A DNA stretch of 20,000 bases, taken from IMG/VR virus record IMGVR_UViG_3300008262_000226, positions 106,474 through 126,473 of that record; one strand, given 5' to 3'. The DNA is from an uncultured virus (IMG/VR IMGVR_UViG_3300008262_000226) (taxonomy: Duplodnaviria; Heunggongvirae; Uroviricota; Caudoviricetes). Both the position numbers and the translations under genes were made by a program. The notes under the pieces were generated by a model. It was not told the DNA's origin. It was given only the letters and a program-made list of their open reading frames with translations, and made no database searches. Below, piece after piece: positions 3,001 to 20,000 of this stretch; the first letter of the stretch is position 1, and every line of letters starts with the position of its first letter.

Positions 3001-4907
3001 TTGTTGAAATTGTAAGAGGAAGATTCTCTACAACACCAGTCGCACACAACGTAGGAAATCTCGCAAACACCAACATTGATTATTATCAGTATAATACAAC
3101 TGGTAGAATAATTGATACTCAAGGTGTTGCACAATGGGGAGGAACTTCGTTCTTGGTTGCTGGTGGTCAAATTGCTGGTATTGATACTATTACAAATACT
3201 GGCGGAACAAATAGAAATCCTGGAACATATAGTTTCATTCCAGCAACAGGTGGAACTGGAACGGGTGCTACATTTACTATTAGCATTGCTAACGATAAAA
3301 CTCTTAATATTGATATTGTTAGCCCTGGATCTGGATATACTGATAATGACCTATTAATAATTACTGCTGCACAAATTGGTGGTGGAACTGGTGCTGGCAA
3401 TCTTACATTCCAAGTAAATGGTGTAAATGCTGGTGGATCTAGCTATTATCTACCAATTTCTACTCCTGGTGTGTTTGATTTCAGAGTTGGTGATCTTATT
3501 CTCATAGATCGTGGTGATGCAGCAACACCAGATAGTGTTGTTGTTTCTGGTGGTGGAAGCATTACTGGATTAAGAAATCAAGCAAACAGTGAGATTGTTC
3601 GTGTTACTGGATTAACAAACTTAAGTAATCCAAATGATCCAGAAGGTTTCCGAGTTCAAGTTATTCGTGGTCAGGAAGGAACACAGGTAAGAACAGATCA
3701 CCCACAAGGTTGTGTGCTTGCTAAATTAATTAAACAAACAAATGCAAGTTATATTACAGGATCTGATCTTAATAATGATGGAGTTTTAGATACACCTGTG
3801 ACGGGTATTTCAAATTCCTCTGTCAATGTTAATATTGGTGTTGCTGAATTTGGTGGAGTTCTTACTACCAGAGACTTCTTGAGATTATCTGGTTCAGAAA
3901 TCGTTGGTATTGCTAGAACGGTATCCACTGATATTCAAGTTCTTGAAGTTAACGATGGATCTTTAACACCCGCTACAGTATTCAAAGTAGAATCTACTAC
4001 TGGTAATACAATTATTGGTGGTAATCTTGGGGTTGGAACTGGATTTAATAAATTTACAGTTACTGGATCATCTGGAAACACTAATATTGCTGGAACATTA
4101 ACAACAGAGAACACATTAACTATTAATGGATCTACTATTCCTAATACTCAATTCTTTACTATTACTAACGGTGGTGCTACAGGAACTCCATTGAGAACTA
4201 CATTCCAGATTGATACTGCGAATGGTAATGTTAGAATGAATGGTGGAAACATCAACATCTATGGAACTGATGGAACAACACCTAGACTAACGTTTGTCAA
4301 TTCTTCGGGTGACTTTACCACATATGGTTCTTTCTCTGCTCTTGGAACGGGTGCTAGCACTTTTGGTGGTGATATTGTTGCTGCAGGTGATTTAACAATT
4401 AATGGTGGTGATATCACTGTTAATTCTGGAGGTAATCCTATTTTTGAGGTAAATAGTAATGGTTCTATGCGTATTGCTGGAATCAATAATTACTTTACTC
4501 AAACGGGTGGTAGAAGATGGGAGTATGCCGATGGATTTGTCATTAATGCTTTGGCAAACGTTAATTATTTTGTTAATGCTACACAAAATACGCTATTTAA
4601 ACTTCCTCAAAATGCTCTAATTGGTGATATGATTCGTATTATAGATATTGGTGGAAACTTAAATTATAATTTAAGTTTGATTGTAAGAGCTCCTGACAAC
4701 GTAAAAGTTCAGAACGCATCTGATAATACTGCAAGAAATATTGCTTCTGGTATTCCAGTTTCTGATTTTGTTGGATATAATGGTGGTGAAATGGTTGTTC
4801 AAACTCCATACGCTGCATTTGCACTAGTTTTTGCAGGATCTACAACTCCAGATGGCAACACTGCTGTTCCATCATCTATCGCTGGTTGGTATTTAATCGA
4901 AGTCTAA
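1..4907 (+). CDS. Giant virion structural / tail-fibre-like protein of T4-like cyanophage type, 5'-truncated by the window edge
   Basis: The frame is open from position 3 (TNKITWDGNSKGTAYVHAYFSYENDYYMIL...), so ATG84 is probably internal. T/G/N/S-rich beta composition. Contains the RRPSIARSGNHTFEYLGFGPGNYSTGFP block I recall from large cyanomyophage structural proteins, 'GRVGINT' fibre repeats, a 'GGTGTGATF..I.SPGSGY' repeat, and a C-terminal 'LP..A.IGDMIRIIDIGG...LVF...GWYL.EV' domain typical of T4-like tail/baseplate proteins. Confidence 0.8.
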   Translation, partial: TNKITWDGNSKGTAYVHAYFSYENDYYMILKDLTGNSEIKYDSNTVTTFTQGSVTATLLDQPNGGRSDISNFLYVVEGANVYTMTPGDTLNDDQGVSYTIAEVEDSSELESTFYIFDIDTIRRRIAGQQDGVYYLTCLRGDIRPFPTGSGVGENFRNFRFSQPVSKLYPEFYKNDPEWYKGISAATATLLDPPPTISAADNYIHGLVTVNDSKGSVTRETVLDFVADPGTGNYTYSGNNTIQAQPGSASAGSEGRLIPISGDSPYPTEGKLYIELRRPSIARSGNHTFEYLGFGPGNYSTGFPARQEVVLTDVQDFYAQAKREDAGIVFYTGLNSNGDLYIGNRKINAITGEETFLERAALVESEDEGDSIGNLVTTFDTPVTFNQIITINGGDGSDESFFNSPVVINNATSFGTVENYPSLKIVTGEGTPVGFDQYLEYNTVGQRTGDIVIHQNRITAAVFDFNPRGTQDYTIRTSISNITPDFNNTFGQTTGFTSQILATNFGTRDPLKSGDMLLKGDQTSFTGSLGWIYANDYIAITNRSDGQTTPQVVGIQGNATGTFARINWNTGINNGSLSINSSTQIRITNATGTLAVTNGVWNIVPGSFNASNNYIDVILNSNLSVYPVNLNNGKGYPVDQVAQPNIAIARSSSQFKEWGVLGAEAIRTETSSIGNYKLGINTVARSPHSAYLTAFVSPETTPRANLDVVGNAFISGKAINSYLTEQTSTKTETNLDNALVVGGNSLSLNGPATFRVQTTNNGRVGINTSLVDVVNPSNVLDRNFVVVGNARITSDFELTGDLQVNGGDLTTTSPSFNLLNTSSPDILNFAGGAEIFNIGHTTTGAQTINVGNAASSSYIQVGNVATESVFRIHRNSLNAIVDIASVADTVGNSCEVQIGGAWNNTASFTEIRTRQTLIAGELEFGTRYASGTSQSRIFTQTRVLNAFDGDQTNTVNLATNATTFNLGSLGGNTTIRNTLNVLASENVNGNIRLNGGLNAGIVEIVRGRFSTTPVAHNVGNLANTNIDYYQYNTTGRIIDTQGVAQWGGTSFLVAGGQIAGIDTITNTGGTNRNPGTYSFIPATGGTGTGATFTISIANDKTLNIDIVSPGSGYTDNDLLIITAAQIGGGTGAGNLTFQVNGVNAGGSSYYLPISTPGVFDFRVGDLILIDRGDAATPDSVVVSGGGSITGLRNQANSEIVRVTGLTNLSNPNDPEGFRVQVIRGQEGTQVRTDHPQGCVLAKLIKQTNASYITGSDLNNDGVLDTPVTGISNSSVNVNIGVAEFGGVLTTRDFLRLSGSEIVGIARTVSTDIQVLEVNDGSLTPATVFKVESTTGNTIIGGNLGVGTGFNKFTVTGSSGNTNIAGTLTTENTLTINGSTIPNTQFFTITNGGATGTPLRTTFQIDTANGNVRMNGGNINIYGTDGTTPRLTFVNSSGDFTTYGSFSALGTGASTFGGDIVAAGDLTINGGDITVNSGGNPIFEVNSNGSMRIAGINNYFTQTGGRRWEYADGFVINALANVNYFVNATQNTLFKLPQNALIGDMIRIIDIGGNLNYNLSLIVRAPDNVKVQNASDNTARNIASGIPVSDFVGYNGGEMVVQTPYAAFALVFAGSTTPDGNTAVPSSIAGWYLIEV

Positions 4908-4908
4908 T

Positions 4909-6138
4909 ATGTTTTACCAAGAAGTAAAATCCGCAAGGGCAGCTGCAATAGGCACCATCATGCCCTGGACAGGACCAATTAGTGACGTTCCTAAGGGATG
5001 GGTATTCTGTAATGGTCAAACTGTTACAGCAAGTGAGTATCCATTATTAGTTCAGGCAATAGGTGATACCTATAATGCAGGAACTTCAGATCTTGGTGGG
5101 TCTTTTCCTAATTATAGTGGAAGTATAGTTCTTCCTAGTTTAAATGGAAAAGCATTGATGGATTTGGAAGAATCATATTTTGCTAGTAGAGCAAGTGGTG
5201 GCACTGGAAGAGCAGCGGATACAAATACAGAGGCAAGAACTATTATTTCTCCGTATATTGGAACTAACTCTGATAATTCTATTCCAGTTATTTTTAATGA
5301 TGTCTATACTGATGTTATTTTTACATTAAATGATAGAAGTGGATATGGTGGTAGGATCAGAGGATCTAGTATTCAAAGAGGTGAGGCTTCTAGAACAGTT
5401 TATATTGCTCCAAGAAAATTAGGTAGAAATCATCTTAGGGGTCATAGACATTCTGGTAGTTACGACACCATATCTAGAACTCCAGATTCATCTCCTGGTG
5501 ATGGGGTAATTCCTTGGGATAATATGGAATTCAAATTTGGTCTTGGTATTCAAGACGTTGAACCAGGACCTCAGGGTGATGTTTATGGTTTGAACTTTCA
5601 AATGACGAGAGGTGATACGTGGTCGGATATAGAAAGCAGAAGTGGTTTTGGTAGTGGTCAGGCAGGAAGAACTGTTGCTGCTGTTTGGTCTGAAAATCCT
5701 CCCATAAACTTATTTCCTCAATCTGTTCGTAGAACTCCTATTTCTGGTGCATTGCAAGATGCAAGATTAACTTCTGGCAGAACTGTTTCTTATGGTATAG
5801 GTGGAGGAACTGTTACTGTTCCTAGTGGGTATACAAATTATTATGCTGATCTTGGAACATCTACAAATTATGGAACATTAAATAGTCATCCAGCATATGA
5901 TTTCAATCAAAACTCAGGAGCAATTGGATTTAATCCAGTTATAGAACCACATAATCATGACGAAATAGATGTAACTTTTGATACTGGAAATCTTAGACCA
6001 CAAAGTTCTTTGACGGCTAGTGCAAACATACCAGTAACTACTACATTAGATAATACTCAAAATAGATCGGTATTGCAAGTTAATTTTAATACTTCGCAAC
6101 CAGGATTAAATTGCATTTATATCATCAGAGCATACTAG
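4909..6138 (+). CDS. Phage tail-collar domain protein (short tail fibre / baseplate-associated, gp12-like), 409 aa
   Basis: N-terminal collar motif IGTIMPWTG...VPKGWVFCNGQ...EYPLLVQAIGDTY...LPSL. HxH motifs GHRH and PHNH. C-terminal 'QP.L...YIIRAY' closing strand typical of collar proteins. Confidence 0.85.
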   Translation: MFYQEVKSARAAAIGTIMPWTGPISDVPKGWVFCNGQTVTASEYPLLVQAIGDTYNAGTSDLGGSFPNYSGSIVLPSLNGKALMDLEESYFASRASGGTGRAADTNTEARTIISPYIGTNSDNSIPVIFNDVYTDVIFTLNDRSGYGGRIRGSSIQRGEASRTVYIAPRKLGRNHLRGHRHSGSYDTISRTPDSSPGDGVIPWDNMEFKFGLGIQDVEPGPQGDVYGLNFQMTRGDTWSDIESRSGFGSGQAGRTVAAVWSENPPINLFPQSVRRTPISGALQDARLTSGRTVSYGIGGGTVTVPSGYTNYYADLGTSTNYGTLNSHPAYDFNQNSGAIGFNPVIEPHNHDEIDVTFDTGNLRPQSSLTASANIPVTTTLDNTQNRSVLQVNFNTSQPGLNCIYIIRAY

Positions 6139-6147
6139 GATAAAAAA

Positions 6148-7059
6148 ATGGCAGTTAGATACGCTAATTACGCAAGAGAAAAATCTAGATTTGGTGGGTA
6201 TTGTGGTGCTATTATTATGCATTCAACTCCTGGAGTTGGAGTTAACAATGACCCTACTTCTGCAGTATTTAAAAATAATTTACCAGCTGGTTATTTAAAA
6301 TGTGATGGCACGGTAAAGAGTGTTAGAGATTTTTATGCTTTGGCTCAAATTCTTGGTGTTGGTGACGATTGTAGATTTAAAAAAGATGGAACTCAATTAA
6401 GAAATGCTGATCCCACGACAGGAGATTTGGGTCAATTTCAACTTCCAGATTTAGGATCTAAAGTTATTCTCCCAAACAGATCAACAGGAACATACGTTAA
6501 TGATAGAGTAGAAACGGATGGTGGAACAACATCCACAAATATTGTTAATAGAGTGGGACCTCAAATTGAGGTCGCTAGTAATGTGGGAAATCGTATAGAA
6601 GTAAATTATTCTGGAAATCTACAAGTAACTGCTGCAAGTGGAATTAATTTTAGTGGAAATGCAAAATACAATATGGTAAGCACTTTATCCACTACAACAT
6701 TAGGAATTGAAAATTTCCAAGGTCATGCTCACAATTCATCGCAAAGTTATTTAAATTTTTCTGCTACCCATAGAGTTGGATCAACAGGTGGTAAAGATGG
6801 TGGTAACTTAAGTGGAAATAGTGGATCTGGTAATGTGTTTGGAGAAACTCAGACAAATACTTCATCTCCATCAACACATAGTCATGGTATAATACGACCA
6901 ACAACATATAATCCTAATCCATTTACTTATTCTTATTCTCAATTTAACGCTCCACTAGATAATGTAGTTTCATATGTTGATATTGATATTCAAAATCAAG
7001 ATAAATTAGATCAGGTTGTAACTCCTTTTATTCTAATTGAATATTTAATTAAGTTCTAA
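6148..7059 (+). CDS. Phage tail-collar domain protein, 303 aa
   Basis: LPAGYLKCDG...FYALAQILGVG...FQLPDLGSK collar motif. HxH motifs GHAH and THSH. C-terminal 'PFILIEYLIKF'. Confidence 0.8.
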   Translation: MAVRYANYAREKSRFGGYCGAIIMHSTPGVGVNNDPTSAVFKNNLPAGYLKCDGTVKSVRDFYALAQILGVGDDCRFKKDGTQLRNADPTTGDLGQFQLPDLGSKVILPNRSTGTYVNDRVETDGGTTSTNIVNRVGPQIEVASNVGNRIEVNYSGNLQVTAASGINFSGNAKYNMVSTLSTTTLGIENFQGHAHNSSQSYLNFSATHRVGSTGGKDGGNLSGNSGSGNVFGETQTNTSSPSTHSHGIIRPTTYNPNPFTYSYSQFNAPLDNVVSYVDIDIQNQDKLDQVVTPFILIEYLIKF

Positions 7060-8768
7060 TGCCACAGTTAGCATCTATCACCAACACTCAAAATTATACT
7101 ATACCACAAGATGTTTATAGTATGCGTATACGCATCTATGGAGCAGGAGGTGGTGGAGAATTTATTAATAATAATGTTGCACTAACATCCACTGCTGGAA
7201 CTTCTGGTGGATCTTCGTCTTTTCTTGGATTAATTGCTGGTGGGGGAACTGGGGGTGGAATTGGTGGTAAAAATTCTGGTGGAAATGGGGGAGGAACTTC
7301 ATTTACTTACAATTGGTCTAATTTAGGAGCTACTATTTCTACAGTTTCTGGTTCTAGTGGTGGAATTAGCACAGGTGGAACTGGTGGAAATATTGCGGGG
7401 GTTACAAAAAATGGAGGAAACGGTACACCAGGGCAAGTTAGCTATACATCTAATGTATATCATGAATTTAATAATGAGACTAATGTTACTCTTTTTACTA
7501 GCAATAGCCCTGATTTGACAGTTTCAATTAATAACACTGGATCTCCTGACGGAACTCCATGTGGATTACCTCCTAGTGGAAAAAATTATGGAGTTTATTT
7601 TAATGTTCCTTTTGTTGATTCTAGTTATAGTGTAAGTGTATTTGGAGTATGTCAGCAAGCAGCTGCGGGTGGAACAGCTGGTGCTCCATATTCTTTGGAT
7701 GGAATTGGTGCTAAAAGTGCAAATGGATTTCAAATATGGTTTACTACGGGAGCTTGTAAAAATACTTACATTAGATGTTTTAGTTTTACTGCTACAGGAT
7801 TGAAGGTAGGAGCGCGTGGGAGAGGAGGTGGTGGTGGTGGAGCCCTAGAAACTACTCTTACTAGAGAAATGTTATTGGGATCTGGGGGGACATATTCACC
7901 AGGAACTACGCATACTGCTACAGTTGGGGGTGGTGGATCTAGAGGAGGGAATACTGCATTTGATGGTGCAAGTGGGTTGATTGATTTATATCTTTTGATT
8001 ATTCCTAGGATTAGTTTAAGTGCTACTAGAACACAAATTGCAGTTGGGGAATCTACTACATTAAATTGGTCAACCACTGGCGATGCTAGTAGTATTTCTT
8101 GGTCATCTGGAGGATTAACGAATGGAAATTTAGCTAGTAGCGCAACAGTTTCGCCAACAGTTACTACTACATATACTGCTACCGCGAGTGGATTGGGTGG
8201 AACTTCCCCACCAGCAAGTGTTACTATAGTAGTTTATCAGAGACCTACGGCTTCAATTACAGTTCCTTCTACTTTATTGTATGGTCAACAGGGAACAATT
8301 AGTTACGATACAAATTACGCTAATACTAGTATCACAATAACGCCAACATATAGTTATGATAATGGCACTGTAACTGGAACCGTAGTTAATATCACTCCAG
8401 CTGCTTCTGCTGAAAATGGCTCAGCAGGAACTCAAGTTGCTGGTAGTTTCACATCATCAATACCCTACAATAATTATGGACCTAGAACAGTTCAATATAC
8501 TTTAAATGCAGTTGGATCTGGTGGTAATACTACAGCACCTGTTACTAATACTACAATTATTATTGACGAAACTCCAGAAAATGTTAATATTCCTGAAACG
8601 GAAGATGCGTTTAAAAACCAAGATCCAGTTTTCTCTCCTGATTATGATGTTACTTCGAGTTATTTGCAAGTATTAGATATTGATATTCCAGTAGAAATTA
8701 AAGCTAGTGCCCCAATTAAAGTAGATAAAAATTTACAAGAAAACTGGCAGGATGTAAGGAGATTATAA
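7059..8768 (+). CDS. Putative adhesin / tail-tip protein A (Gly-rich head with lectin-like insert, Ig/PKD-like stalk, conserved 67-aa C-terminal module), 569 aa
   Basis: Start overlaps the upstream stop (TAATG). GAGGGG...GGGGGG glycine-rich domain and an Ig-like repeat 'GESTTLNWSTTGDAS...TTTYTATASG.GG'. C-terminus DETPEN...WQDVRRL is shared with the next two ORFs. Confidence 0.7.
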   Translation: MPQLASITNTQNYTIPQDVYSMRIRIYGAGGGGEFINNNVALTSTAGTSGGSSSFLGLIAGGGTGGGIGGKNSGGNGGGTSFTYNWSNLGATISTVSGSSGGISTGGTGGNIAGVTKNGGNGTPGQVSYTSNVYHEFNNETNVTLFTSNSPDLTVSINNTGSPDGTPCGLPPSGKNYGVYFNVPFVDSSYSVSVFGVCQQAAAGGTAGAPYSLDGIGAKSANGFQIWFTTGACKNTYIRCFSFTATGLKVGARGRGGGGGGALETTLTREMLLGSGGTYSPGTTHTATVGGGGSRGGNTAFDGASGLIDLYLLIIPRISLSATRTQIAVGESTTLNWSTTGDASSISWSSGGLTNGNLASSATVSPTVTTTYTATASGLGGTSPPASVTIVVYQRPTASITVPSTLLYGQQGTISYDTNYANTSITITPTYSYDNGTVTGTVVNITPAASAENGSAGTQVAGSFTSSIPYNNYGPRTVQYTLNAVGSGGNTTAPVTNTTIIIDETPENVNIPETEDAFKNQDPVFSPDYDVTSSYLQVLDIDIPVEIKASAPIKVDKNLQENWQDVRRL

Positions 8769-8769
8769 A

Positions 8770-9942
8770 ATGCCAATATATTCAACTAGTAGAGATGTAG
8801 GGTGGAATGCATGTACTCAAGGGCAAAATATTGCGTGGTCTTGGAGTGTGCAGAATAGCACTAGTTCTGATAGTTTTATATTTAATCCTGTTGCTATCGC
8901 TTTTACTTTAGATGGTCCTTCTAGACCAAATGCTCCATCTGTAAGTATTTCTGTAAACCCTTCTTCTATTATTAATAATGGATCATCTTCAGCAACATTA
9001 TCTTGGTCTGCTTCTGGAAACGTAAGTAGTGTTAGTGTTACTGATGTAAGTAGCCCTGGAACATCAGGAAGCAGAACTGTTCAGCCAACCTCTACTAGAA
9101 CATATACTATCACTGCAAGCGGTGAAGGTGGAACAAGTAATGCAAGTACAACTCTTACTGTATATCAACCACCAAATCTTACGTTATCTTTAGACAGATC
9201 TTCTATTGCCGCAGGAGAATCTACTACACTTAGATGGTCAACTACTGGAGACGCAAGCACAATTACATGGACTTCTGGTGGTATTACTAATGGCAACTTG
9301 AATAGTTTTACTACAGTTTCACCAACACAATCACAAACTTATTCTGCAACTGTTTCTGGATTAGGTGGTAGTGATAGTGATAGTATTAGATTAACAGTAT
9401 ATCAAAGACCAACAGTTTCATTGACTGTTCCAACTACATTAAATTATGGTCAACAGGGTATTATAAGTTATGAGAGTTGTTATAGCAATACATCATTAAC
9501 AATTACTCCATCTTACAGTTACTCTAATTCTTCTGGATCATCAACTGTAACTGGTGATGCTATTGCTCTACCCACACCAAATTCTGCTGAAGAAGGTGTT
9601 GGAATAAATTGTGTTAGTGGAACGTTAAATACTACTATACCTTACACTAGTTCTGGTCCTAGAACAGTTACTTACTCTTTAGCTGCAGTAGGTTCTGGCG
9701 GCGATCGAACAATTACTAATAGTGTAACAATTAATATCGATGAAACTCCAGAAAATATTAATGTTCCTGAAACAGATGAGTTATATAAACAACAAGAACC
9801 AATTTATACACCAAACTACACAATAACATCAAATTATTTAGAAATTGCTGATATTGATATCCCCGTGGAGATAAAATCTAATTTTCCGATTAAAGTGGAT
9901 AGAAATAGACAAGACAACTGGCAAGATTTAAGACAAATATAA
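8770..9942 (+). CDS. Putative adhesin / tail-tip protein B (short head, tandem Ig/PKD-like repeats, conserved C-terminal module), 390 aa
   Basis: Two 'TL.WS....S....TY..T.SG.GG' Ig-like repeats. Paralogous C-terminus DETPEN...WQDLRQI. Confidence 0.7.
   Translation: MPIYSTSRDVGWNACTQGQNIAWSWSVQNSTSSDSFIFNPVAIAFTLDGPSRPNAPSVSISVNPSSIINNGSSSATLSWSASGNVSSVSVTDVSSPGTSGSRTVQPTSTRTYTITASGEGGTSNASTTLTVYQPPNLTLSLDRSSIAAGESTTLRWSTTGDASTITWTSGGITNGNLNSFTTVSPTQSQTYSATVSGLGGSDSDSIRLTVYQRPTVSLTVPTTLNYGQQGIISYESCYSNTSLTITPSYSYSNSSGSSTVTGDAIALPTPNSAEEGVGINCVSGTLNTTIPYTSSGPRTVTYSLAAVGSGGDRTITNSVTINIDETPENINVPETDELYKQQEPIYTPNYTITSNYLEIADIDIPVEIKSNFPIKVDRNRQDNWQDLRQI
9208..9431 (+). repeat. Dispersed direct repeat copy 1 (in protein B gene): 99-bp perfect block 9208-9306 plus 81-bp block 9351-9431
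   Basis: By direct comparison, 9208-9306 is identical to 10940-11038, and 9351-9431 matches 11083-11163 with one mismatch (A9363/G11095). Constant offset of 1732 bp. Confidence 0.95.
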
Positions 9943-9943
9943 G

Positions 9944-11668
9944 ATGGCAACATACACAACAAATCAAACCGTAACAATACCAGCAAACGCAGCAAATGTT
10001 AGAGTTCAAGTTGCTGGAGCTCGCGGTGGTAATGGTGGAAATGACGGAAATCCTGGAGGAACTGGTGGTAATGGTAGAAGAGGAACTTTTTATCTATCCG
10101 ATTTTACTGCTAGAACATTAACATTAAATATTGGTCAATCTGGTGGTAACGGATTTGGGTGTGTTTCTAATAGTGGATCTGGTGGTGGAGGATCTGGAGT
10201 TGCTAGTGGTGGTAATGGTGGTCTTACTGGTCCTCAAGGATGCTCTGGTGGTGGTGGCGGCGGCGGCGGTGCTACTGGAGTATATGATTCTGTTGCTAGT
10301 GGTTGGATAATTGTCGCGGCTGGGGGTGGCGGAGCGGGTGGAGCTAGTTATCCTGATAGTTTTTTACGTGGTGGTGATGGTGGTTTTGGATTGGGTTTCC
10401 TTACTGGTGATGTAAATAGCATATCTAGAGGTGGTAATGGATCATCGCAAGGATTTGATGGGGGAGGTGGAGGTGGTGGTGGTGGTGGATGCCCAGGAGG
10501 CGGCGGTGGTAGAGAAGGAGCTGATGATAGAGCAGGTAGATATCCATCTGGAGGTGGTAGTGGAGGTGCCAGTTCATATAATTCTAGTTATGCTACTTTG
10601 AGTGGATCTGGCGATACTCATAATGGAAGTGGTTATGTAGATATTACTTACGATTTAATTAGCCCTAGTGCCACTAGTTTTACTGCTACTCCTTCTTCAA
10701 TTATACGAGGTCAATCTACTAGATTGGAGTGGACTACAACTAATACAGTTAGTGCATCAATTAATAATGGCGTTGGTAATGTAACGGTTCCTAATAGTTT
10801 TGTTGATGTGTATCCCACTCAAACTACAACATATGTTCTTAATTTAGTTGGATATGGTAATGCAACTGGATCTGCTCAAGTTACGATTACTGTATATCAA
10901 CCACCTATTTTAACTTTCACATTAGATAGAAATCCAATAGCCGCAGGAGAATCTACTACACTTAGATGGTCAACTACTGGAGACGCAAGCACAATTACAT
11001 GGACTTCTGGTGGTATTACTAATGGCAACTTGAATAGTAATGCCATAGTTTCTCCTTCAGAAAGCACAACATATTCAGCAGTTGTTTCTGGATTGGGTGG
11101 TAGTGATAGTGATAGTATTAGATTAACAGTATATCAAAGACCAACAGTTTCATTGACTGTTCCTGCAAGTATAAATTATGGTCAACAAGGAACAATATCT
11201 TATAGTAGTTCATATTCTAATACGAGTTTAATATTGCAACCTGTTTATACTTACGGAAGAGGAGTTGGAACAATTAACGGAACTGCAATAACTTTAACAA
11301 AACCAACTTCTGCTGAAAGTGGTGTTGGTATAACTACTGTTAATGGAACAATAACAACAGAAATACCATATAATACTACTGGTCCTTTTTCTGTTTCTTA
11401 TACTCTTACTGGTGTTGGTGGTGGTGGAGAAGCTTCCACTACTTCAGAAATACAAATTATAGTGGATGAAACACCCGAAAATATTAATCTACCAGAAACT
11501 GAAAATGTTTATAAATTGCAAGAACCAATTAATACACCAGATTATACTGTAACATCAAATTATCTTGCAGTTGATGGTGTTGACATTCCAGTTGAAGTAA
11601 GATCAAATAGACCTATTAAGGTAGATAGAAATCAGCAACAGGATTGGCAAGATATAAGACAACTATAA
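9944..11668 (+). CDS. Putative adhesin / tail-tip protein C (ALK/LTK- or gp38-like glycine-rich head, Ig/PKD-like repeats, conserved C-terminal module), 574 aa
   Basis: VAGARGGNG...IGQSGG...GGGGGGGGATG...IIVAAGGGGAG...GGGGGGGGG..GG.GG pattern of polyglycine-II sandwich domains. Ig-like repeats. C-terminus DETPEN...WQDIRQL. Confidence 0.7.
   Translation: MATYTTNQTVTIPANAANVRVQVAGARGGNGGNDGNPGGTGGNGRRGTFYLSDFTARTLTLNIGQSGGNGFGCVSNSGSGGGGSGVASGGNGGLTGPQGCSGGGGGGGGATGVYDSVASGWIIVAAGGGGAGGASYPDSFLRGGDGGFGLGFLTGDVNSISRGGNGSSQGFDGGGGGGGGGGCPGGGGGREGADDRAGRYPSGGGSGGASSYNSSYATLSGSGDTHNGSGYVDITYDLISPSATSFTATPSSIIRGQSTRLEWTTTNTVSASINNGVGNVTVPNSFVDVYPTQTTTYVLNLVGYGNATGSAQVTITVYQPPILTFTLDRNPIAAGESTTLRWSTTGDASTITWTSGGITNGNLNSNAIVSPSESTTYSAVVSGLGGSDSDSIRLTVYQRPTVSLTVPASINYGQQGTISYSSSYSNTSLILQPVYTYGRGVGTINGTAITLTKPTSAESGVGITTVNGTITTEIPYNTTGPFSVSYTLTGVGGGGEASTTSEIQIIVDETPENINLPETENVYKLQEPINTPDYTVTSNYLAVDGVDIPVEVRSNRPIKVDRNQQQDWQDIRQL
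10940..11163 (+). repeat. Dispersed direct repeat copy 2 (in protein C gene)
   Basis: Partner of 9208-9431. The 44-bp segment between the two blocks is clearly diverged. Confidence 0.95.
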
Positions 11669-11671
11669 ATA
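11664..11671 (+). promoter_or_regulatory. T4-type late promoter (gp55 sigma) TATAAATA
   Basis: Exact TATAAATA overlapping the stop codon of the 574-aa ORF, 31 bp before ATG11703, at the longest intergenic gap in the structural block. Confidence 0.75.
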
Positions 11672-11702
11672 ACATGGGAACTCATAACTAGACTGAACGA
11701 GG

Positions 11703-14627
11703 ATGCCATATCAATATTCTACAACACCGCTATACGTTGCTGAGGGTGATATTCTTCAGTTTAGATATCAAGCACCTCCTTTTTGGGATTATACCGAAAC
11801 AATTACTATTCAGATTGGTGGATTAACAACATACTGGTATGTTACTACAGTTCCAGAAGATTTTAGACCAGATCCTTTTCCTTTAAATGAAGTTAATGAT
11901 GCTTTGTTGGATACATATTATTATTTTGATCCAGTAGTATTCCAAGCAACAACTGGCAATTCAAATACTGTAACTGGATTAACTCCAACAACACAAGCTT
12001 CTGTTAGTTTGACTTCTAATTTTATCGGAACCGTTACTGATTATTCTTTGAGAATAAATGATGGAGCATGGTTTATTCCAGGATCTTCGACAACTGTTCA
12101 AAATGGAGATAAAATTGCTTTACGATTAAAATCTGGTGCTGGGAACCAAGAACTTAGAGAATTAGTTCTTGGTATTGGAACTGGGTATGAAACGTGGAGA
12201 GTAACTACTATAGCTATACCAAGAAATGAACCTATTCCATTTCCAAATTTTACAGATCTTACTGCTCAGTCATTAAACAAAGTAATTTATAGTAATGTTC
12301 TTCGTATTCAGGGATTGTTGAGACCAGCTGCTGTTCAAGTAGATAACGGCGCTTCATTTGCAATATCTAGCACAAATACAACAACTACAAATGCAGATGG
12401 ATTTGATGTATTAGATGGAGTAACGTTTGGAACTACAGGAACAATTTCAAACGGTCAATATTTGCAACTTAGAATGACCAGCCCAAGCACAGAGTTTACT
12501 TCTAAAACTACTGTTTTGGGGATTGGTGATATCACTAGTGGTTCTGATTGGGTTATCACAACAGGTCAAAGCTTATCAACTACTCCAACTAGTTTTACAT
12601 TTCCTGATATTAGTGGAGCAATTGAAAATTTCCTTCAACCATCTGCTGCTAGACCTGTTGGGGGAATAACTGGATTGGGAACTGGAATTAGTGTTCCTGT
12701 GGAATTAGTTTCAACTACTGCTTCTGAGGTTAAAGTTAAAATTAATAATTCTTCGATTGGTGTATTTCCTGCTACCGTTTCAAACGGAGACACAATAACT
12801 TTATATGCTAGATCTTCTTCTACTTTTGGGGCAAGTGTTGAGGTTAATGTGAAAGTTGGTGGAACTACGATTCCTACATGGAGAGTTCAAACAAATACAG
12901 GACCAGACACAACAGCAGATTTTACTCCACCAACAAATAAAACAAACCAAGTTCCAGGAACTTATGTATCTAGTTCGGTAGTTAGCATTACTGGAATTAA
13001 TAGGTCAATAACAATTAGTGCTACAAATAATGCATTAATTTCAATCGATTATGATACTGCAGTTGCTGGACCCAGAACATTTGATCCTACTGTAAATACT
13101 TCATTTTATTTGGTGTTACAATCTTCTTCTTCATTAAATACTACTGTTTCTACGAGTGTGACAGTAGGAACAGGAACTACAAATAATCCATTTACGTGGT
13201 CAGTTGGAACTTATGCAGTTGCACCTCCAGCACCTAGTTACGTTGGATCTTGGTATAGCAAAAAGAATGAGAAAGTAATTAGAAATGGATCAGGAACAAT
13301 CACTTCTATCCAGAAAACAAAATATGATGGATATTCAGTGGGAACTATTTTACCAATCTTGAAAGAAAGCACAGCTGCTGGTTATGGAACTTTAACCGCT
13401 GGAAGTCTTACTGCTAGATTCCCAGGATATTTACTTTGTGATGGATCTTCGTATAATGTAGCAGATTATCCAGTATTGTGGGAAGTAATTGGTAATACAT
13501 ATGGTGGAACTGGATCATATAATACTACAACAAAAGCATATAGTGGAACATTCAATGTTCCTGATTATAGAAATGTTAGAATGTGTGGAACTGGATTGAT
13601 AGATGGTAACAAAGGATCTTCGGCATTCTTGCCAGTTGATGGTGGTAGTGTCTTTAGTGTTGGATCAACGGGGGGATTTTGGTTTGTTGATAGTGTTGGT
13701 GTTGCTGGTCCTCTTCCATACGAACAAGTCGAAGCATCTTCAAACACTGCTACTACAGGAACTACCAGCCCATTCTTTACTTTGGGAACAGTAAAAACTA
13801 CTGGTGCTAACTTAGTTACAGCAGAAGTAAGTTTTACTACAATAGGAACTATTACTGCTCAGGTCGGACCAGTTTCTAGTGTCACTACTTCTGCTCCTTC
13901 GCATAGTCATACATATCTCAGTGCTGTGGTTGATGGTGATAGAGGAGATCCACTAATTCCTTGGGGAGCTAGAGCATTATTTGGAACTACTGCTGGTCCC
14001 ATTGATACTGGAAATGATTACGCGGGAGAATTTCCAGATGAATCTGAAGCAACCAATGCTCCTGGTGTTTGGCGACAGTTCCTCACTGGAAGATTTCCAA
14101 ATTTGGCAGCTGAATTGACTGCTGCTGGAACTTCTATTGGTGAATTGACAGGTCAGTTGACACGAGAAGGTGACACAAGAATTCAATACGAAAATCTATG
14201 GCCCAGTAATCTCACTGGATTAGATACAAGCAAATTAATTACTCTGAATACTACTGGAAATCGTGAAGTTGCTGGTGTTATTGATACAAATGCGACGACT
14301 TTTAGAATAGATGATTTTGTTTCTACATCTGGTTCGACGGAAACACACTCTCATTATATTACAACATCCATAGTTACCAATCCATTAACTGATTATTCTT
14401 ATGGAAATTCTTCTGGTTCTGGAACCAAGAATGGTTTGGGTGATGCTGCAAATACTTTAAGTATTTCTTTCAATGCATCTGAAACAGGAATAGGCGTTAA
14501 TGAAGGAACTTTTACAATGAATTCTACCATAAAAAATCCAGTTCCAGAAGTTGCTTTATCTCCAAATAGAACAGTTCCTATTTTAGCACCATTCCACAAA
14601 GTTAGATATATAATTAAAGCATACTGA
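11703..14627 (+). CDS. Tail fibre / baseplate-associated protein: N-terminal half-repeat + four ~110-aa Ig-like repeats + tail-collar domain, 974 aa
   Basis: Repeats end in WYVTT, WRVTT, WVITT, WRVQT and WSVGT, most with a 'V.NGD.I.L' motif. Collar motif VGTILP...FPGYLLCDGSSYNVADYPVLWEVIGNTYGG...FNVPDYR. HxH motifs SHSH and THSH. C-terminal PFHKVRYIIKAY. Confidence 0.8.
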   Translation: MPYQYSTTPLYVAEGDILQFRYQAPPFWDYTETITIQIGGLTTYWYVTTVPEDFRPDPFPLNEVNDALLDTYYYFDPVVFQATTGNSNTVTGLTPTTQASVSLTSNFIGTVTDYSLRINDGAWFIPGSSTTVQNGDKIALRLKSGAGNQELRELVLGIGTGYETWRVTTIAIPRNEPIPFPNFTDLTAQSLNKVIYSNVLRIQGLLRPAAVQVDNGASFAISSTNTTTTNADGFDVLDGVTFGTTGTISNGQYLQLRMTSPSTEFTSKTTVLGIGDITSGSDWVITTGQSLSTTPTSFTFPDISGAIENFLQPSAARPVGGITGLGTGISVPVELVSTTASEVKVKINNSSIGVFPATVSNGDTITLYARSSSTFGASVEVNVKVGGTTIPTWRVQTNTGPDTTADFTPPTNKTNQVPGTYVSSSVVSITGINRSITISATNNALISIDYDTAVAGPRTFDPTVNTSFYLVLQSSSSLNTTVSTSVTVGTGTTNNPFTWSVGTYAVAPPAPSYVGSWYSKKNEKVIRNGSGTITSIQKTKYDGYSVGTILPILKESTAAGYGTLTAGSLTARFPGYLLCDGSSYNVADYPVLWEVIGNTYGGTGSYNTTTKAYSGTFNVPDYRNVRMCGTGLIDGNKGSSAFLPVDGGSVFSVGSTGGFWFVDSVGVAGPLPYEQVEASSNTATTGTTSPFFTLGTVKTTGANLVTAEVSFTTIGTITAQVGPVSSVTTSAPSHSHTYLSAVVDGDRGDPLIPWGARALFGTTAGPIDTGNDYAGEFPDESEATNAPGVWRQFLTGRFPNLAAELTAAGTSIGELTGQLTREGDTRIQYENLWPSNLTGLDTSKLITLNTTGNREVAGVIDTNATTFRIDDFVSTSGSTETHSHYITTSIVTNPLTDYSYGNSSGSGTKNGLGDAANTLSISFNASETGIGVNEGTFTMNSTIKNPVPEVALSPNRTVPILAPFHKVRYIIKAY

Positions 14628-14634
14628 TTAATTT

Positions 14635-15294
14635 ATGACAATACAACCATATAGACCACTTGAGTTGATGCGAAATGATGCATTTACTAAATCTTCCTTT
14701 GATGATTTCATTGGAGTGTGGGAAGATTTTGTTCCGACATCATTTTGTGAAGAACTTATTCAGTATTTCGAAGATACGAGATCTTTGAATAGTAGTATTG
14801 CTCCAGGTGATTTGGAATCTGACTATCAAGAATTTGTTAGAGGTGAAGATCAGTATCAAGGAGCATTACATAGGAAAGATGTTTCTATGTTATTGAACTA
14901 CCATCAACAAGAATTGTCTTATAAAGTGCATCAATTTTTAACATCTTGTGTATTGCATTACATTGTTGAGTATGATCAACTTAGGAAAGTTCCTATGTTT
15001 TCCACTGATATAAAATTTCAAAAAACTTCCCCTGGCGGCGGGTATCATTTATGGCACTATGAAAATTCTGCAGCATCACATGCTCAGAGAGAATTAACAT
15101 GGATGATTTATTTAAATGATATTCCAGATGGAGAAGGAGAGACAGAATTTTTATATCAAAGAAGAAGAATTAAACCAAAGCAAGGAACTGTTGTTATATG
15201 GCCTGCTGGTATGACTCATGTTCATAAAGGAAATACAGTTCTAACAACAGATAAATACATATTAACAGGATGGTATATTAAATCAGGAAAATAA
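14635..15294 (+). CDS. 2OG-Fe(II) dioxygenase (prolyl-4-hydroxylase-like), 219 aa
   Basis: QKTSPGGGYHLWHYE (HxE), RELTWMIYLND...GEGETEF, IWPAGMTHVHKGN (distal His), KYILTGW. Family is common in cyanomyophages. Confidence 0.9.
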   Translation: MTIQPYRPLELMRNDAFTKSSFDDFIGVWEDFVPTSFCEELIQYFEDTRSLNSSIAPGDLESDYQEFVRGEDQYQGALHRKDVSMLLNYHQQELSYKVHQFLTSCVLHYIVEYDQLRKVPMFSTDIKFQKTSPGGGYHLWHYENSAASHAQRELTWMIYLNDIPDGEGETEFLYQRRRIKPKQGTVVIWPAGMTHVHKGNTVLTTDKYILTGWYIKSGK

Positions 15295-15297
15295 ATC

Positions 15298-16197
15298 ATG
15301 CCATATCAACCAATTTTTAGAACAGCTATAGTTGAGGCTGATTTCTTAAATAAAATTCTGATTACAACACCAACATTTGTTGAGGCGGGAGAAAAGATTC
15401 CTCTCAATAGAGTAAATATATCAGAAGAAATTTGTGAAAGATTTTTAAATGAACAAGTAGATTCATATTGGCACTCTGAAAAAGATAAATTAGAATATTT
15501 TGTTGCATATAATGATGGAACTTACTATTGTCAAAGAAAAAGAGTAAGGTATGATTTCGAAACAAAAACAAATTATTGGTCAACATATAATTTTAATGGA
15601 GCCTCTAAAGATCAAATAGAAGCATTAACAAATAAAATTCTTGATCTTACCGCTGCTCTTAGGGAATATAAAATTGCTGAGTATGAGGGTGTTCTTGAAA
15701 AGATTGATCAAGAGTTTATTTTCTTTGATCAAAGATGGTTGAAGAAATTCAGAGAAAAACAAATGATGTTATCTGCTTCTGATTGGAGAGTTCTTCCTGA
15801 TGTTGAGGATTCATATCCAGGCGAAAAGGATATGTGGATAAAGTGGCGTTCTACGATGAGATCGGAGACTGTAAAGAAACCTCAGGAATTTGAAACGAAT
15901 TTAGAATTTTTAAAATATTTGTATGACCATAAGTGGCCAATAGATCCAAAAAGATATAAAGAAAAATATCCAGATTCTGATGTTGAATACCTTTCTACTG
16001 AAGATCAATGGGTTAGTTATGATAGTGAAGCATCTACTGATTTTGTTGATTCTAGACTTGTCAATATTCTCAGTTCCAGTGGTGTTTATAGAGAAAAAAT
16101 TGTTGATATTAAACGATCTGTATTCGAACTTATTAAAGATCTTAGACTGGAAGACTTCACAGAAATTAATTACGATCAATATAATATTATAGAATGA
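15298..16197 (+). CDS. Conserved phage protein with tail-assembly-chaperone-like motif, 299 aa
   Basis: MMLSASDWRVLPDV...MWIKWRSTMR...WPIDP resembles the 'LL..SDW..LPD....W..YR..LR...WP..P' signature of Phage_tail_APC-type chaperones. Confidence 0.6.
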   Translation: MPYQPIFRTAIVEADFLNKILITTPTFVEAGEKIPLNRVNISEEICERFLNEQVDSYWHSEKDKLEYFVAYNDGTYYCQRKRVRYDFETKTNYWSTYNFNGASKDQIEALTNKILDLTAALREYKIAEYEGVLEKIDQEFIFFDQRWLKKFREKQMMLSASDWRVLPDVEDSYPGEKDMWIKWRSTMRSETVKKPQEFETNLEFLKYLYDHKWPIDPKRYKEKYPDSDVEYLSTEDQWVSYDSEASTDFVDSRLVNILSSSGVYREKIVDIKRSVFELIKDLRLEDFTEINYDQYNIIE

Positions 16198-16673
16198 TAC
16201 ATGAAATTGATTTACTAAATGATGATCAACTTCAATATATTAATGATTATTTTAACTATCTGACATTTAAAGATGGAAAAATTAGCAATCCTGGTATTTT
16301 GAAAGTATGTGAAACTGTTTTTGATGGTCCAGGTATTGCAGAACTTAATGATTATTGTCAGCAAATTATTTTAAATACAAATTTACCATTTTTGGTATCT
16401 AGAATATCACAAATTTATTTTGTAAAATATAGCGTTGGTGGTCAATATAAAGATCACTATGATTCTAATCCTTGTGGTGGAGTTAGACCAGATTACAGTA
16501 TGACTTGTTTTTTGAGTGATGATTATGATGGTGGTGAATTAGTTATAGAAAATGAAAAATCTGTAAAATTGAAAAGGGGCAAAGCAGTAGTATATCCAGG
16601 CAATTTACTTCATAGAGTAAATAAAGTAATGTCTGGAAGACGAGATGTTTTTATATGTTGGATTGAAATATGA
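16194..16673 (+). CDS. PKHD-type (PiuC/YbiX-like) 2OG-Fe(II) hydroxylase, 159 aa
   Basis: FKDGK near the N-terminus. YSVGGQYKDHYD (HxD), DYSMTCFLSDDYDGGELVI, VKLKRGKAVVYP..LLHRV.KV.SGRR.V.I.W. ATGA overlap with the upstream gene. Confidence 0.85.
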   Translation: MIHEIDLLNDDQLQYINDYFNYLTFKDGKISNPGILKVCETVFDGPGIAELNDYCQQIILNTNLPFLVSRISQIYFVKYSVGGQYKDHYDSNPCGGVRPDYSMTCFLSDDYDGGELVIENEKSVKLKRGKAVVYPGNLLHRVNKVMSGRRDVFICWIEI

Positions 16674-17188
16674 CTGAAATACTGTGTTATGATAATTTTT
16701 TTGAACAAAATGAATTCAAAAAAATACTTGAATATGTGGGCAGACCTTGTTGGGGATTTGGTCATGGAACATTTGATGAATCACATCCTCAATATAAGAA
16801 TAGCATTCCTTTTTGGGGTATGAATTTAGATGGAGAAGAGTATTTTACTAATTTTCTTCTAAATAAGATACAGGATAAAACTCAAACGAGATTTAAACTG
16901 CTGACAGTGTATGCTAATGGGCATACTTTTGGAACAAAAGGATCGTTTCACCAAGATTGGTATGACTATAGTGGGAGAACATTTCTTTTATATGCAAATA
17001 CTGATTGGAATGTAGAATGGGGTGGAAACACGGTTTTTGATTTGGGAAACGAAGAATATCAATTCTCTGTTCCTAAACCAAATACTGCTCTTTTATTCCC
17101 TGGTGTTATACCACATTATGCAGATGCCACTACCAGATTGTATACTGGTTTAAGAATAACAATAGCTTGGAAGTTACTTTTGGAGTAA
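16670..17188 (+). CDS. 2OG-Fe(II) dioxygenase, 172 aa
   Basis: YANGHTFGTKGSFHQD (HxD), TFLLYAN..W.VEWGG.T.F, PKPN.ALLFPG.IPHYA, RITIAWKL. ATGA overlap with the upstream gene. Confidence 0.85.
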   Translation: MTEILCYDNFFEQNEFKKILEYVGRPCWGFGHGTFDESHPQYKNSIPFWGMNLDGEEYFTNFLLNKIQDKTQTRFKLLTVYANGHTFGTKGSFHQDWYDYSGRTFLLYANTDWNVEWGGNTVFDLGNEEYQFSVPKPNTALLFPGVIPHYADATTRLYTGLRITIAWKLLLE

Positions 17189-18700: not shown

Positions 18701-19186
18701 ATGCTTTGGAACATTGACGCTCAAAAAGTTGCTGACGGTTACGGTATTAGTCTGGATGATTTTATTGACACCGTAAACGGTAGCGGCACATCACCAATTA
18801 CAGAAGTAGCAGTTGCTAACATTCTTGGTGGTCAACGTGTCGTTGGTAAACAACTTCCTTACGATGTGATTGCCAAGGAACGTATTAATCAATTGGTAGA
18901 AGTTCGTAATATTTGCAAGACACAATATGTTTATTTTTCGCCCTCTACCGCTACTGGTAAAGGTCGTTTTTACGATGAAAATGACTACCAAAAGAAATTG
19001 AGTTCGATTGATTCTTATGTCTTCTGTGATCTTCGTGCTCGCTTCACTGAACCTCCTAAGTTCTATGAAATTCCAGTTGACAAAGTAGTAGAATTGACGG
19101 ATAATGGAACAATCAAAGATGGTAAAGTAACGGTCAAGCAATTCTTTGATCTCTTCCCCTACGAACAATACGCTCTCAAACCCTGA
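18701..19186 (+). CDS. Putative type II restriction endonuclease, PD-(D/E)XK fold, RsaI-like (predicted GTAC), ~161 aa
   Basis: ATG18701, 5 bp after the upstream stop, is more plausible than TTG18677. Motifs PYDV (18857) ... VEVRNI (Glu at 18899) ... VYFSPS.ATGKGR.Y.E..Y.KKL..I..Y...D ... Y.IPV..V ... KV...F follow the order and size I recall for R.RsaI (GYDL...WEVRSI...VYFNPS..VGSGRKF.E.GF..K...I). The stop lies 1 bp before a DNA methyltransferase. Confidence 0.65.
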   Translation: MLWNIDAQKVADGYGISLDDFIDTVNGSGTSPITEVAVANILGGQRVVGKQLPYDVIAKERINQLVEVRNICKTQYVYFSPSTATGKGRFYDENDYQKKLSSIDSYVFCDLRARFTEPPKFYEIPVDKVVELTDNGTIKDGKVTVKQFFDLFPYEQYALKP

Positions 19187-19187
19187 T

Positions 19188-20000
19188 ATGAAAACAAACA
19201 TCATTCACGTTGGAGACAACATCACCAATCTGAAGAATCTTCCTGATTCTTCTGTGGATTTGTGTGTCACTTCGCCACCTTATTATAACCTGCGTGACTA
19301 TCAGAATGCAGGTCAAATTGGTGTGGAAAATACTGTGAGTGAGTATGTAGAGAATCTTTGCAAAGTATTTGATGAGATCTATCGTGTATTGAAACCGACT
19401 GGATCGTGTTGGGTCAATATTGCTGATACATACGATAAGAAGCGTTTGCTTCAGGTTCCTAGTCGTTTTGAGATTGCCATGTGTGATCGTGGATGGCAGC
19501 TCAGAAATGAAATTATTTGGAACAAACCTAATCCACAACCAATCTCTTCGAAGGATCGTTTCTGGTCTAATCATGAGAAGTTCTTTTGGTTTGTGAAGGA
19601 TGTGAAAAAATACTATTTTGATCGAGATCCTATTCTTGTGCCACAAGCAGAGATTAGTATTCGACGCATGTTCTCTAAGAACAATGTAGATAAGCGTAAG
19701 GATGCTAATGCATCTGAAAAGGAAGGATTTGCGATTTCATCCGTGAGTCAGGATAAGCATTATGCCCGTATGCGAGAAGAGATGGGTATCTCCAAAGATT
19801 TTGATTATGAGGCATTGATTGCTGCTGGCAAGTGCCCCATGCGACCAGAATTCAGCGTCTGGGAGGTCGCTAGCACCACCTACAAGGGCGCTCACTTCGC
19901 TGTCTACCCTCCCGATCTGATCGCCAAACCTGTTCTCTCGTGCTGCCCCTTAGACGGCGTTGTGGTCGATCCTTTTATGGGGTCTGGAACCACGGGTGAA
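19188..20000 (+). CDS. Beta-class DNA amino-methyltransferase (N6_N4_Mtase family, probably N4-cytosine), 3'-truncated; absent from the supplied ORF track
   Basis: My translation from ATG19188 is open to the window end (271 codons): MKTNIIHVGD...LPDSSVDLCVTSPPYY (motif IV, 19269-19283)...RVLKPTGS.WVNI.D...RNEIIWNKPNP...HE...HFAVYPPDL...VVVDPFMGSGTTGE (motif I, from 19968). Motif IV precedes motif I, which defines the beta class. SPPY suggests m4C. Confidence 0.95.
   Translation, partial: MKTNIIHVGDNITNLKNLPDSSVDLCVTSPPYYNLRDYQNAGQIGVENTVSEYVENLCKVFDEIYRVLKPTGSCWVNIADTYDKKRLLQVPSRFEIAMCDRGWQLRNEIIWNKPNPQPISSKDRFWSNHEKFFWFVKDVKKYYFDRDPILVPQAEISIRRMFSKNNVDKRKDANASEKEGFAISSVSQDKHYARMREEMGISKDFDYEALIAAGKCPMRPEFSVWEVASTTYKGAHFAVYPPDLIAKPVLSCCPLDGVVVDPFMGSGTTGE

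Follow-up and report, generated by a model that had tools for sequence, protein, structure and literature searches.

Complementary halves of an Ig-like repeat, encoded by adjacent tail fibre genes of a T4-like cyanophage, suggest docking by domain completion

The window analysed here is the whole of a 20,000-nucleotide (nt) stretch from an uncultured virus of the Caudoviricetes (IMG/VR record IMGVR_UViG_3300008262_000226, positions 106,474 to 126,473), and our subject is a run of four genes in it that encode three paralogous proteins, called A, B and C below, and a 974-amino-acid (aa) tail-collar protein, called the fibre (Table 1). All large open reading frames (ORFs) of the window lie on the + strand. 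When the fibre was compared by tblastn with 50,697 phage records (E 1e-5), 51 of the 51 records matched were cyanophage or marine, at 38-44% identity, and the gene order is common to S-PM2 (p223-p226), Syn1 (035-038) and S-CAM4 (gp231-233; two paralogues). Because of these matches and this common order, we assign the window, on its sequence, to the fibre cluster of a T4-like cyanomyovirus. A megablast search of positions 7059-14627 against the phage records returned zero matches, and contigs with a 100% identical fibre are present in IMG/VR. The coordinates that a first-pass annotation of this DNA had given for the paralogues, their C-terminal modules, the fibre and its repeats were all confirmed.

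Table 1. Coordinates of genes, domains and motifs in the window.
Feature	Position	Strand	Remarks
Giant protein	enters from left end, to 4907	+	
Two tail-collar proteins	4909-6138, 6148-7059	+	
Paralogue A, 569 aa	7059..8768	+	glycine-rich N-terminal part, Ig-like domains, C-terminal module; phrog_9770 'virion structural protein', E 9e-162
Module A, 67 aa	8565..8765	+	first-half-like, strands A-D by alignment to repeats; module HMM E 1.6e-30 in six-frame scan
Paralogue B, 390 aa	8770..9942	+	Ig-like units and C-terminal module, without glycine-rich part
Module B, 67 aa	9739..9939	+	module HMM E 2.5e-32
Paralogue C, 574 aa	9944..11668	+	glycine-rich N-terminal part, Ig-like domains, C-terminal module
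Module C, 67 aa	11465..11665	+	adjoins fibre gene; partner in complex prediction
TATAAATA, late-promoter-like motif	11664..11671	+	overlaps paralogue C stop codon; 32 nt before fibre ATG
Fibre, 974 aa, tail-collar protein	11703..14627	+	phrog_4924 'short tail fiber'
Orphan second half of repeat, residues 9-49	11727..11849	+	strands E-G by alignment
Repeat R1, residues 53-169	11859..12209	+	repeat HMM; AF2 block-mean pLDDT 83-96, but 65 over insertion 81-90
Repeat R2, residues 175-287	12225..12563	+	repeat HMM; AF2 model
Repeat R3, residues 292-397	12576..12893	+	repeat HMM; best full-length match of the modules
Repeat R4, residues 402-503	12906..13211	+	repeat HMM; first half matched by module HMM and profile
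Phage tail collar domain, residues 574-624	13422..13574	+	PF07484, E 1.3e-9, 38.3 bits vs cut-off 24
2OG-Fe(II) oxygenase-type genes (three)	14635-15294, 16194-16673, 16670-17188	+	interspersed with fibre genes
Gene of PHROG family annotated tail assembly chaperone	15298-16197	+	3' of fibre, among 2OG-Fe(II) oxygenases

A hidden Markov model (HMM) of the fibre repeat, built from 44 repeats of 12 fibre homologues with the window's own included, detected four full repeats in the window fibre (independent E-values 8e-26 to 1e-30; HMM positions 1-112 covered), in the same nucleotide ranges as previously proposed. The unit has a length of ~100-115 aa, contains both halves and follows the pattern 'D.TPD.F.F ... 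V.NGD.I.LR ... IGG ... W.VTT'. AlphaFold2 (AF2) modelling of fibre residues 1-290 with an 86-row alignment yielded R1 and R2 as beta-sandwiches, mostly with a predicted local distance difference test (pLDDT) value above 90. Foldseek searches returned only generic immunoglobulin-like (Ig-like), PapD-like and titin-like domains with E from 2e-6 and low TM scores, and VIA-align gave Z of at most 8.3, single domains reaching Z 6-7.7 with a root-mean-square deviation of 2.4-3.5 A over 84-107 residues. As modelled, the repeat is a generic Ig-like sandwich. Sequence searches of Pfam, NCBIfam and PDB found no family or solved relative for it, and the sole PDB match of the fibre profile, to a small beta-sandwich crystal protein, was weak (E 0.0018). 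The repeat was also seen in two bacterial surface-type proteins, P0118 (1020 aa), which carries the unit 8 times, and P0117 (1657 aa). An Lcl_C domain accompanies a signal-like N-terminus in one of the two, and F5/8 type C domains accompany a pilin-type N-methylation motif in the other. The fibre itself is probably a homotrimer, to judge from its tail-collar family. The conserved HxH motifs H734/H736 (13902-13910) and H882/H884 (14346-14354) in its C-terminal half, which are invariant in 84 homologues, fit this, as HxH motifs bind metal ions in trimeric fibres of T4.

The N-terminus of the fibre precedes R1 and is not a complete repeat. Using hhalign, residues 9-49 aligned on columns 76-115 of the 115 columns of the repeat alignment (Prob 94.8%, E 5.5e-8) and on columns 60-97 of the 100 columns of an independent profile, for which 17 repeats were taken from P0116-P0118, three proteins not of the cyanophage type (95.5%, E 1.4e-8). 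The repeat HMM found a second half at the N-terminus of 12/12 fibres, and 109 of 114 fibre homologues begin with the half at residues 9-12, the remaining five being two fragments and three distant proteins. Furthermore, no stretch of the fibre is more conserved than the half-domain, which has a mean top-residue frequency of 0.72 compared to 0.55-0.64 for the second halves of R1-R4. In the AF2 model residues 1-50 had a pLDDT of 61-80 and only the last hairpin (31-38, 41-48) was formed; the segment matching the strand 'TV.NGD.I.LR' was unpaired and the first strand of the half-domain was absent. The sequence comparisons, which agree with the first-pass annotation on this point, identify the fibre N-terminus as the second half only of an Ig-like repeat.

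Each of the three paralogues was confirmed to end in a 67-aa module, and modules A and B are 60% and 69% identical to module C, respectively. A small module profile scored P 0.055 against the repeats. When the profiles were enlarged to 188 unique modules and, for each repeat, 106 copies, 35 columns of the module (24-58) matched R4 (16-50) with P 4.7e-4, and P was 0.0064 against all repeats. The module score was reached by 0/60 column-shuffled controls for R4 and by 0/60 for all repeats, and against R3 by 2/60. Run against the 114 fibre homologues, a small database, the module HMM also matched the R4 first half in the majority of them, with E 3.9e-5 at best. Through one relative, P0280, we reached a second clade of fibres, 1918-2012 aa long and 28-36% identical, which have the same orphan N-terminus and whose upstream paralogues end in '...EIPVEIKTDNPDVQIQINNGTW..R.I'. 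The modules of this clade matched those of the window with 98.6% (E 8.6e-16), R3 with 82.4% (E 9.9e-6) and all repeats with 60.7% (E 8.2e-5), and their scores against the repeats were reached by 0/60 shuffles. A combined profile of both clades aligned with columns 4-59 on R3 columns 2-58. Apart from weak matches to R1 (P 0.015 to 0.053), all module alignments were in the first-half register: the module corresponds to the stretch of the repeat that opens with 'D.TP' and closes at the conserved aromatic residue behind strand four, and the fibre resumes at the next loop. The module is, by these alignments, a relative of the first half of the repeat, the likeness being real but remote. Set against the repeats by profile, the paralogue C-termini and the fibre N-terminus fall into first-half and second-half registers, respectively, as the first-pass annotation had expected from inspection by eye. 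Searches of Pfam, NCBIfam and PDB sequences found nothing for the module.

Like the orphan half, the module was modelled poorly alone. In an AF2 prediction of the last 155 aa of paralogue C, the module had a pLDDT of 42-73 and the adjoining Ig-like domain, from the same 22-row alignment, a pLDDT of 82-91. The module is more conserved than the Ig domain before it (mean top-residue frequency 0.63 vs 0.50). In the second clade we also observed an ORF of 60-74 aa directly 5' of the fibre gene that contains only the last third of the module ('EIKA.EPIQVRINGGEW..VR'; L098:8790-8969, L099:8748-8969, L100:8765-8974, L101:3045-3251, L102:1471-1680), and which may be a remnant or may serve the fibre N-terminus as a bare plug or cap.

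We then surveyed the two pieces across 94 loci, which represent 57 unique fibre N-termini, 54 of them with at least 300 nt of sequence upstream of the fibre. A module lay upstream of the orphan half in 54/54 unique loci, mostly ending 30-96 nt before the half-domain, and the order of module then fibre was found in 6/6 second-clade loci as well. A six-frame scan of the 126-kb genome detected the module 3 times and the orphan half once, and with the module HMM no other first-half-like piece. The two halves were never found in one frame. No ORF in the surveyed loci held both, 0/114 fibre homologues had a module in front of the half, and among the best 150 of 243 module-bearing representatives, in 149 of which the module was detected, none gave a match, at E up to 0.01, to a second half or to a full repeat. 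In these 150, the module ended at most 4 residues from the C-terminus in 147 of 162 occurrences; the other 15, in 12 proteins, were followed either by a short tail or by a linker of Gly, Pro, Ser and acidic residues that leads into the next paralogue. Several metagenomic proteins of 990-1791 aa (P0130, P0131, P0133-P0140) consist of two or three fused paralogues, their internal modules being followed by such a linker of ~40-60 aa. Of the two outcomes that the first-pass annotation had anticipated among relatives, variation in paralogue number was borne out and natural fusion of the halves was not: when longer fused forms were sought, P0280 alone came up, and it is not a fusion of module and fibre.

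The short distance between paralogue C and the fibre, 34 nt, and the fact that the pieces would join in the right order might favour a different origin of the complete domain, namely that frameshifting, read-through or bypassing fuses the two proteins so that the domain is made in cis. Several features of the cluster contradict this. Genes A, B, C and fibre lie in frames 0, 1, 2 and 0, paralogue C ends with TAA, and the fibre frame is closed by a TGA at 11694-11696, two codons before the ATG. Moreover, a conserved motif resembling what we take to be the late promoter consensus lies between the two genes. In the window its sequence, TATAAATA, occurs as a single copy, yet this is a chance-level count, at least one copy being present in 181/200 shuffles; ATAAATA occurs at most 60 nt upstream of the fibre ATG in 29/43 unique relatives. 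In 5 unique loci an oxygenase-like gene of ~200 aa separates the last paralogue from the fibre, and A and B do not adjoin the fibre gene at all. Because of the frames, the closing TGA, the intervening motif and the intervening gene, a translational fusion of paralogue C and fibre is excluded on sequence grounds, in agreement with the earlier view that read-through is unlikely, and we give synthesis in cis next to no credence. The loci with an oxygenase-type gene in this position are L012, L018, L027, L028, L061 and L065.

The number of modules varied between loci. Of 41 complete loci, 28 had 3 modules, 7 had 2, 5 had 4 and 1 had 1; three heads per trimer are therefore not upheld as a rule. That three modules are the commonest number, and that two or three modules are combined in a single polypeptide in some relatives, would also suit an arrangement in which the paralogues A, B and C form a hetero-oligomer through mutual contacts of their modules, while the three half-domains of a fibre trimer pack into a beta structure of their own. 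We consider this improbable, as loci with 1, 2 or 4 modules exist and as it leaves unexplained why the two pieces complement each other as halves of one domain.

Whether the halves bind was addressed by complex prediction with ESMFold2, using fibre residues 1-170 and module C, each with its own alignment, and 3 controls. The score was 0.33 (runs 0.33, 0.74 and 0.31), the best of the 3 controls reached 0.00, and the verdict was 'weak support'. In calibration the mark was reached by 116/157 solved complexes and 2/215 mismatched pairs, and at 0.60 or under by 18/157 solved complexes and both mismatches. The runs agreed in at least 71% of contacts, with partner pLDDT of at least 63. The pLDDT of the module rose from 28 beside an unrelated chain to 63-70 with the fibre, and that of the fibre from 80-83 with unrelated partners to 90-93 with the module.

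By sequence, the module and the fibre N-terminus are the two complementary halves of one Ig-like repeat, and we think it somewhat more probable than otherwise that they dock by completing this domain in trans, thereby fastening the accessory proteins A, B and C to the fibre N-terminus. Each accessory protein would consist of a variable N-terminal part, Ig-like spacer domains and the conserved 67-aa module. The module would supply strands A-D of a fibre repeat, ending by alignment just after the conserved Trp of the D-E loop, and the fibre, which begins with the three remaining strands, E-G, would insert these between the strands of the module, as in the ordinary Ig fold; it is because of this ordinary topology that the strands are expected to interleave. 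The accessory proteins and the fibre would then be joined non-covalently, through a single Ig-like beta-sandwich made from two polypeptides, and the completed unit would act as a fifth repeat through which the accessory protein is attached to the N-terminus of the fibre. Because all modules of a genome are of one kind, A, B and C would be interchangeable occupants of one socket. The mutual binding of the halves, the strand topology, the stoichiometry and the end that faces the host we infer from this arrangement. The original proposal, that heads dock by completing a shared domain, is in this respect supported: the halves are complementary, adjacent, never in one frame and each poorly modelled alone. 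Its binding step fared less well, the complex score offering what the method itself terms weak support.

A number of observations weigh against docking by domain completion. The window-clade module is remote from the first half (32% at best), and the stronger numbers need the second clade as a bridge; the low pLDDT of the module may stem from its shallow alignment; and with 1 to 4 modules per locus the number is unmatched to the three N-termini of a trimer. The pass in complex prediction was weak, two of three runs being near 0.3, and as the prediction yielded scores without contacts, a sandwich that superimposes on an internal repeat is only presumed. Furthermore, distance correlation over 49 pairs showed no co-evolution of the half-domain and the module beyond shared descent: r was 0.625, compared to 0.632 for a control domain, and the mirror-tree partial r of the half-domain was 0.24 with the module and 0.19 with the neighbouring Ig domain over the same number of pairs. 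Finally, we found no evidence of A, B and C in the virion, and the S-PM2 clusters T4-GC 737 and 740 have no proteomic flag in their rows of the PMC3037559 supplementary table. A change of 'QFRF' to 'RLKF' in the half-domain that accompanies one of 'VDIN' to 'VEIE/D' in all modules of one clade was noticed by eye and set aside, as it is a single event and not evidence.

Several of these points would also be expected if the module were an anchor on another part of the virion, such as a baseplate protein or another collar protein, and if the half-domain were a relic of truncation or paired elsewhere, the two pieces sharing ancestry and making no contact. The weak complex pass, the varying number of modules and the lack of a specific co-evolution signal are all compatible with such an anchor, and so is the retention of the module inside fused multi-paralogue proteins, where flexible linkers follow it as they would a self-contained unit. 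A self-contained module is harder to reconcile with its pLDDT of 42-73 alone and 28 beside an unrelated chain, and one would not expect a relic to be better conserved than every other part of the fibre. The adjacency of the pieces in 54/54 loci and again in the second clade, together with the want of any other first-half-like piece in the 126-kb genome, also speaks against separate roles. We regard an anchor of this kind as unlikely, if a good deal less so than the hetero-oligomer, and prefer docking by domain completion.

Completion of a fold by a second chain has a precedent in chaperone-usher pili, in which the incomplete Ig-like fold of one subunit is completed by another polypeptide through donor-strand complementation and exchange, so that subunits are linked non-covalently and with great stability. 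Among the Foldseek matches were CFA/I pilin fusion entries (3f83-3f85). As in these pili, an incomplete Ig-like fold is found here in one subunit (in the fibre, and in the module). Unlike in the pili, where a single strand is missing, the domain is split roughly in half, ~4-5 strands versus 3; the partners are phage fibre proteins whose binding is predicted only, and the Pfam and PHROG assignments of the cluster include no genes for a chaperone and usher of this kind. The window fibre has a Collar domain like the short tail fibre protein gp12 of T4, but no sequence match to T4 (0 of the 51 tblastn-matched records), and we know of no counterpart in gp12 of its N-terminal 500 aa of Ig-like repeats and orphan half. 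A further parallel is offered by branched tailspike and fibre assemblies of the CBA120-like and G7C-like types, in which tandem receptor-binding proteins dock on a shared scaffold through whole N-terminal adaptor domains. There, as here, tandem proteins each carry a conserved docking piece, a resemblance drawn from their description; in the cyanophage cluster, by contrast, the putative docking piece is C-terminal and only half a domain.

Two long proteins, P0116 (1420 aa) and P0280 (1950 aa), have a glycine-rich domain covalently N-terminal to four repeats and a collar, and this order, glycine-rich part and then repeats, fits the order that docking would produce. They are not fusions of the two halves, as no module or half-domain lies at the junction of glycine-rich part and repeats. 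P0280 still begins with the orphan half and has modules upstream; for P0116 no locus was found in viral contigs. A BLASTP comparison of P0003 with P0280 revealed no significant homology in their glycine-rich parts (E 0.078).

The orthologues in S-PM2 (p223-p226), Syn1 (Syn1_035-038) and S-CAM4 (gp231-233) share with the window the genes, their order, the C-terminal module and the orphan N-terminus, and carry no annotation beyond 'virion structural protein' and 'short tail fiber protein'. In the literature that we searched, including passages of PMC9910659 and PMC3037559, no description of the split domain in these orthologous proteins was found, in keeping with the first-pass impression that the arrangement is undescribed, and no structure of the fibres of T4-like cyanophages. 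Fold complementation in pili and tandem docking pieces in tailspikes are thus known, and an Ig-like domain halved between phage fibre proteins was not found in this literature.

The N-terminal parts of A, B and C may be receptor-binding heads. They are glycine-rich in A and C (in A with a weak Gly_rich_2 match, E 0.045) and different in B and in relatives, and such variable N-terminal parts fit exchangeable distal parts. A vWA domain was considered for the other head types and dropped, as Pfam detected none. Taken one step further, the fibre might serve as a platform for combinatorial display, each N-terminal half-domain accepting any of the 1-4 module-bearing proteins of its own genome or of a co-infecting relative. 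We put this forward as a speculative extension that is unlikely as it stands; if it is true, single virions would carry mixed sets of heads, and swapping or deleting a head would alter host range and leave the fibre and baseplate untouched. Paralogue B is 390 aa long in the window, whereas sibling contigs in which the fibre is 100% identical encode a form of 469 aa (compared with L004:4831-6237). The size gap is one in-frame deletion of 237 nt, by which the N-terminal part loses residues 16-94 while 374/375 of the other residues are identical, and it may represent a natural head-deletion variant or an assembly variant.

Among the other genes of the window, the 2OG-Fe(II) oxygenase-type genes may serve to modify fibre proteins. 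The collar proteins have a common C-terminal motif (...CIYIIRAY, 6109-6135; ...IEYLIKF, 7030-7056; ...VRYIIKAY, 14598-14624), which is invariant in 84 fibre homologues, and the giant protein ends in ...GWYLIEV (4878-4904). A gene for an N6/N4 DNA methylase (PF01555, E 5e-39) at 19146-20000 is cut by the right end of the window. Two overlapping ORFs take the place of a single fibre gene in two contigs from metagenomes (L018, 8001-9170 and 9152-10882; L007, 649-2664 and 2636-3481), which reflects a frameshift or a sequencing error.

T4-like cyanophages rank with the most abundant ocean viruses, yet their receptor-binding apparatus is for the most part unassigned and lacks an obvious counterpart in T4. 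A plug and socket of this conserved kind would reveal which proteins hang on which fibre, and would explain why the paralogues vary in number and in their heads yet keep one C-terminal piece. A natural Ig-like domain that is halved and assembles from two chains would be of interest to protein engineers, and in cultured phages such as S-PM2 and Syn1 the two halves provide a concrete target for studies of host range.

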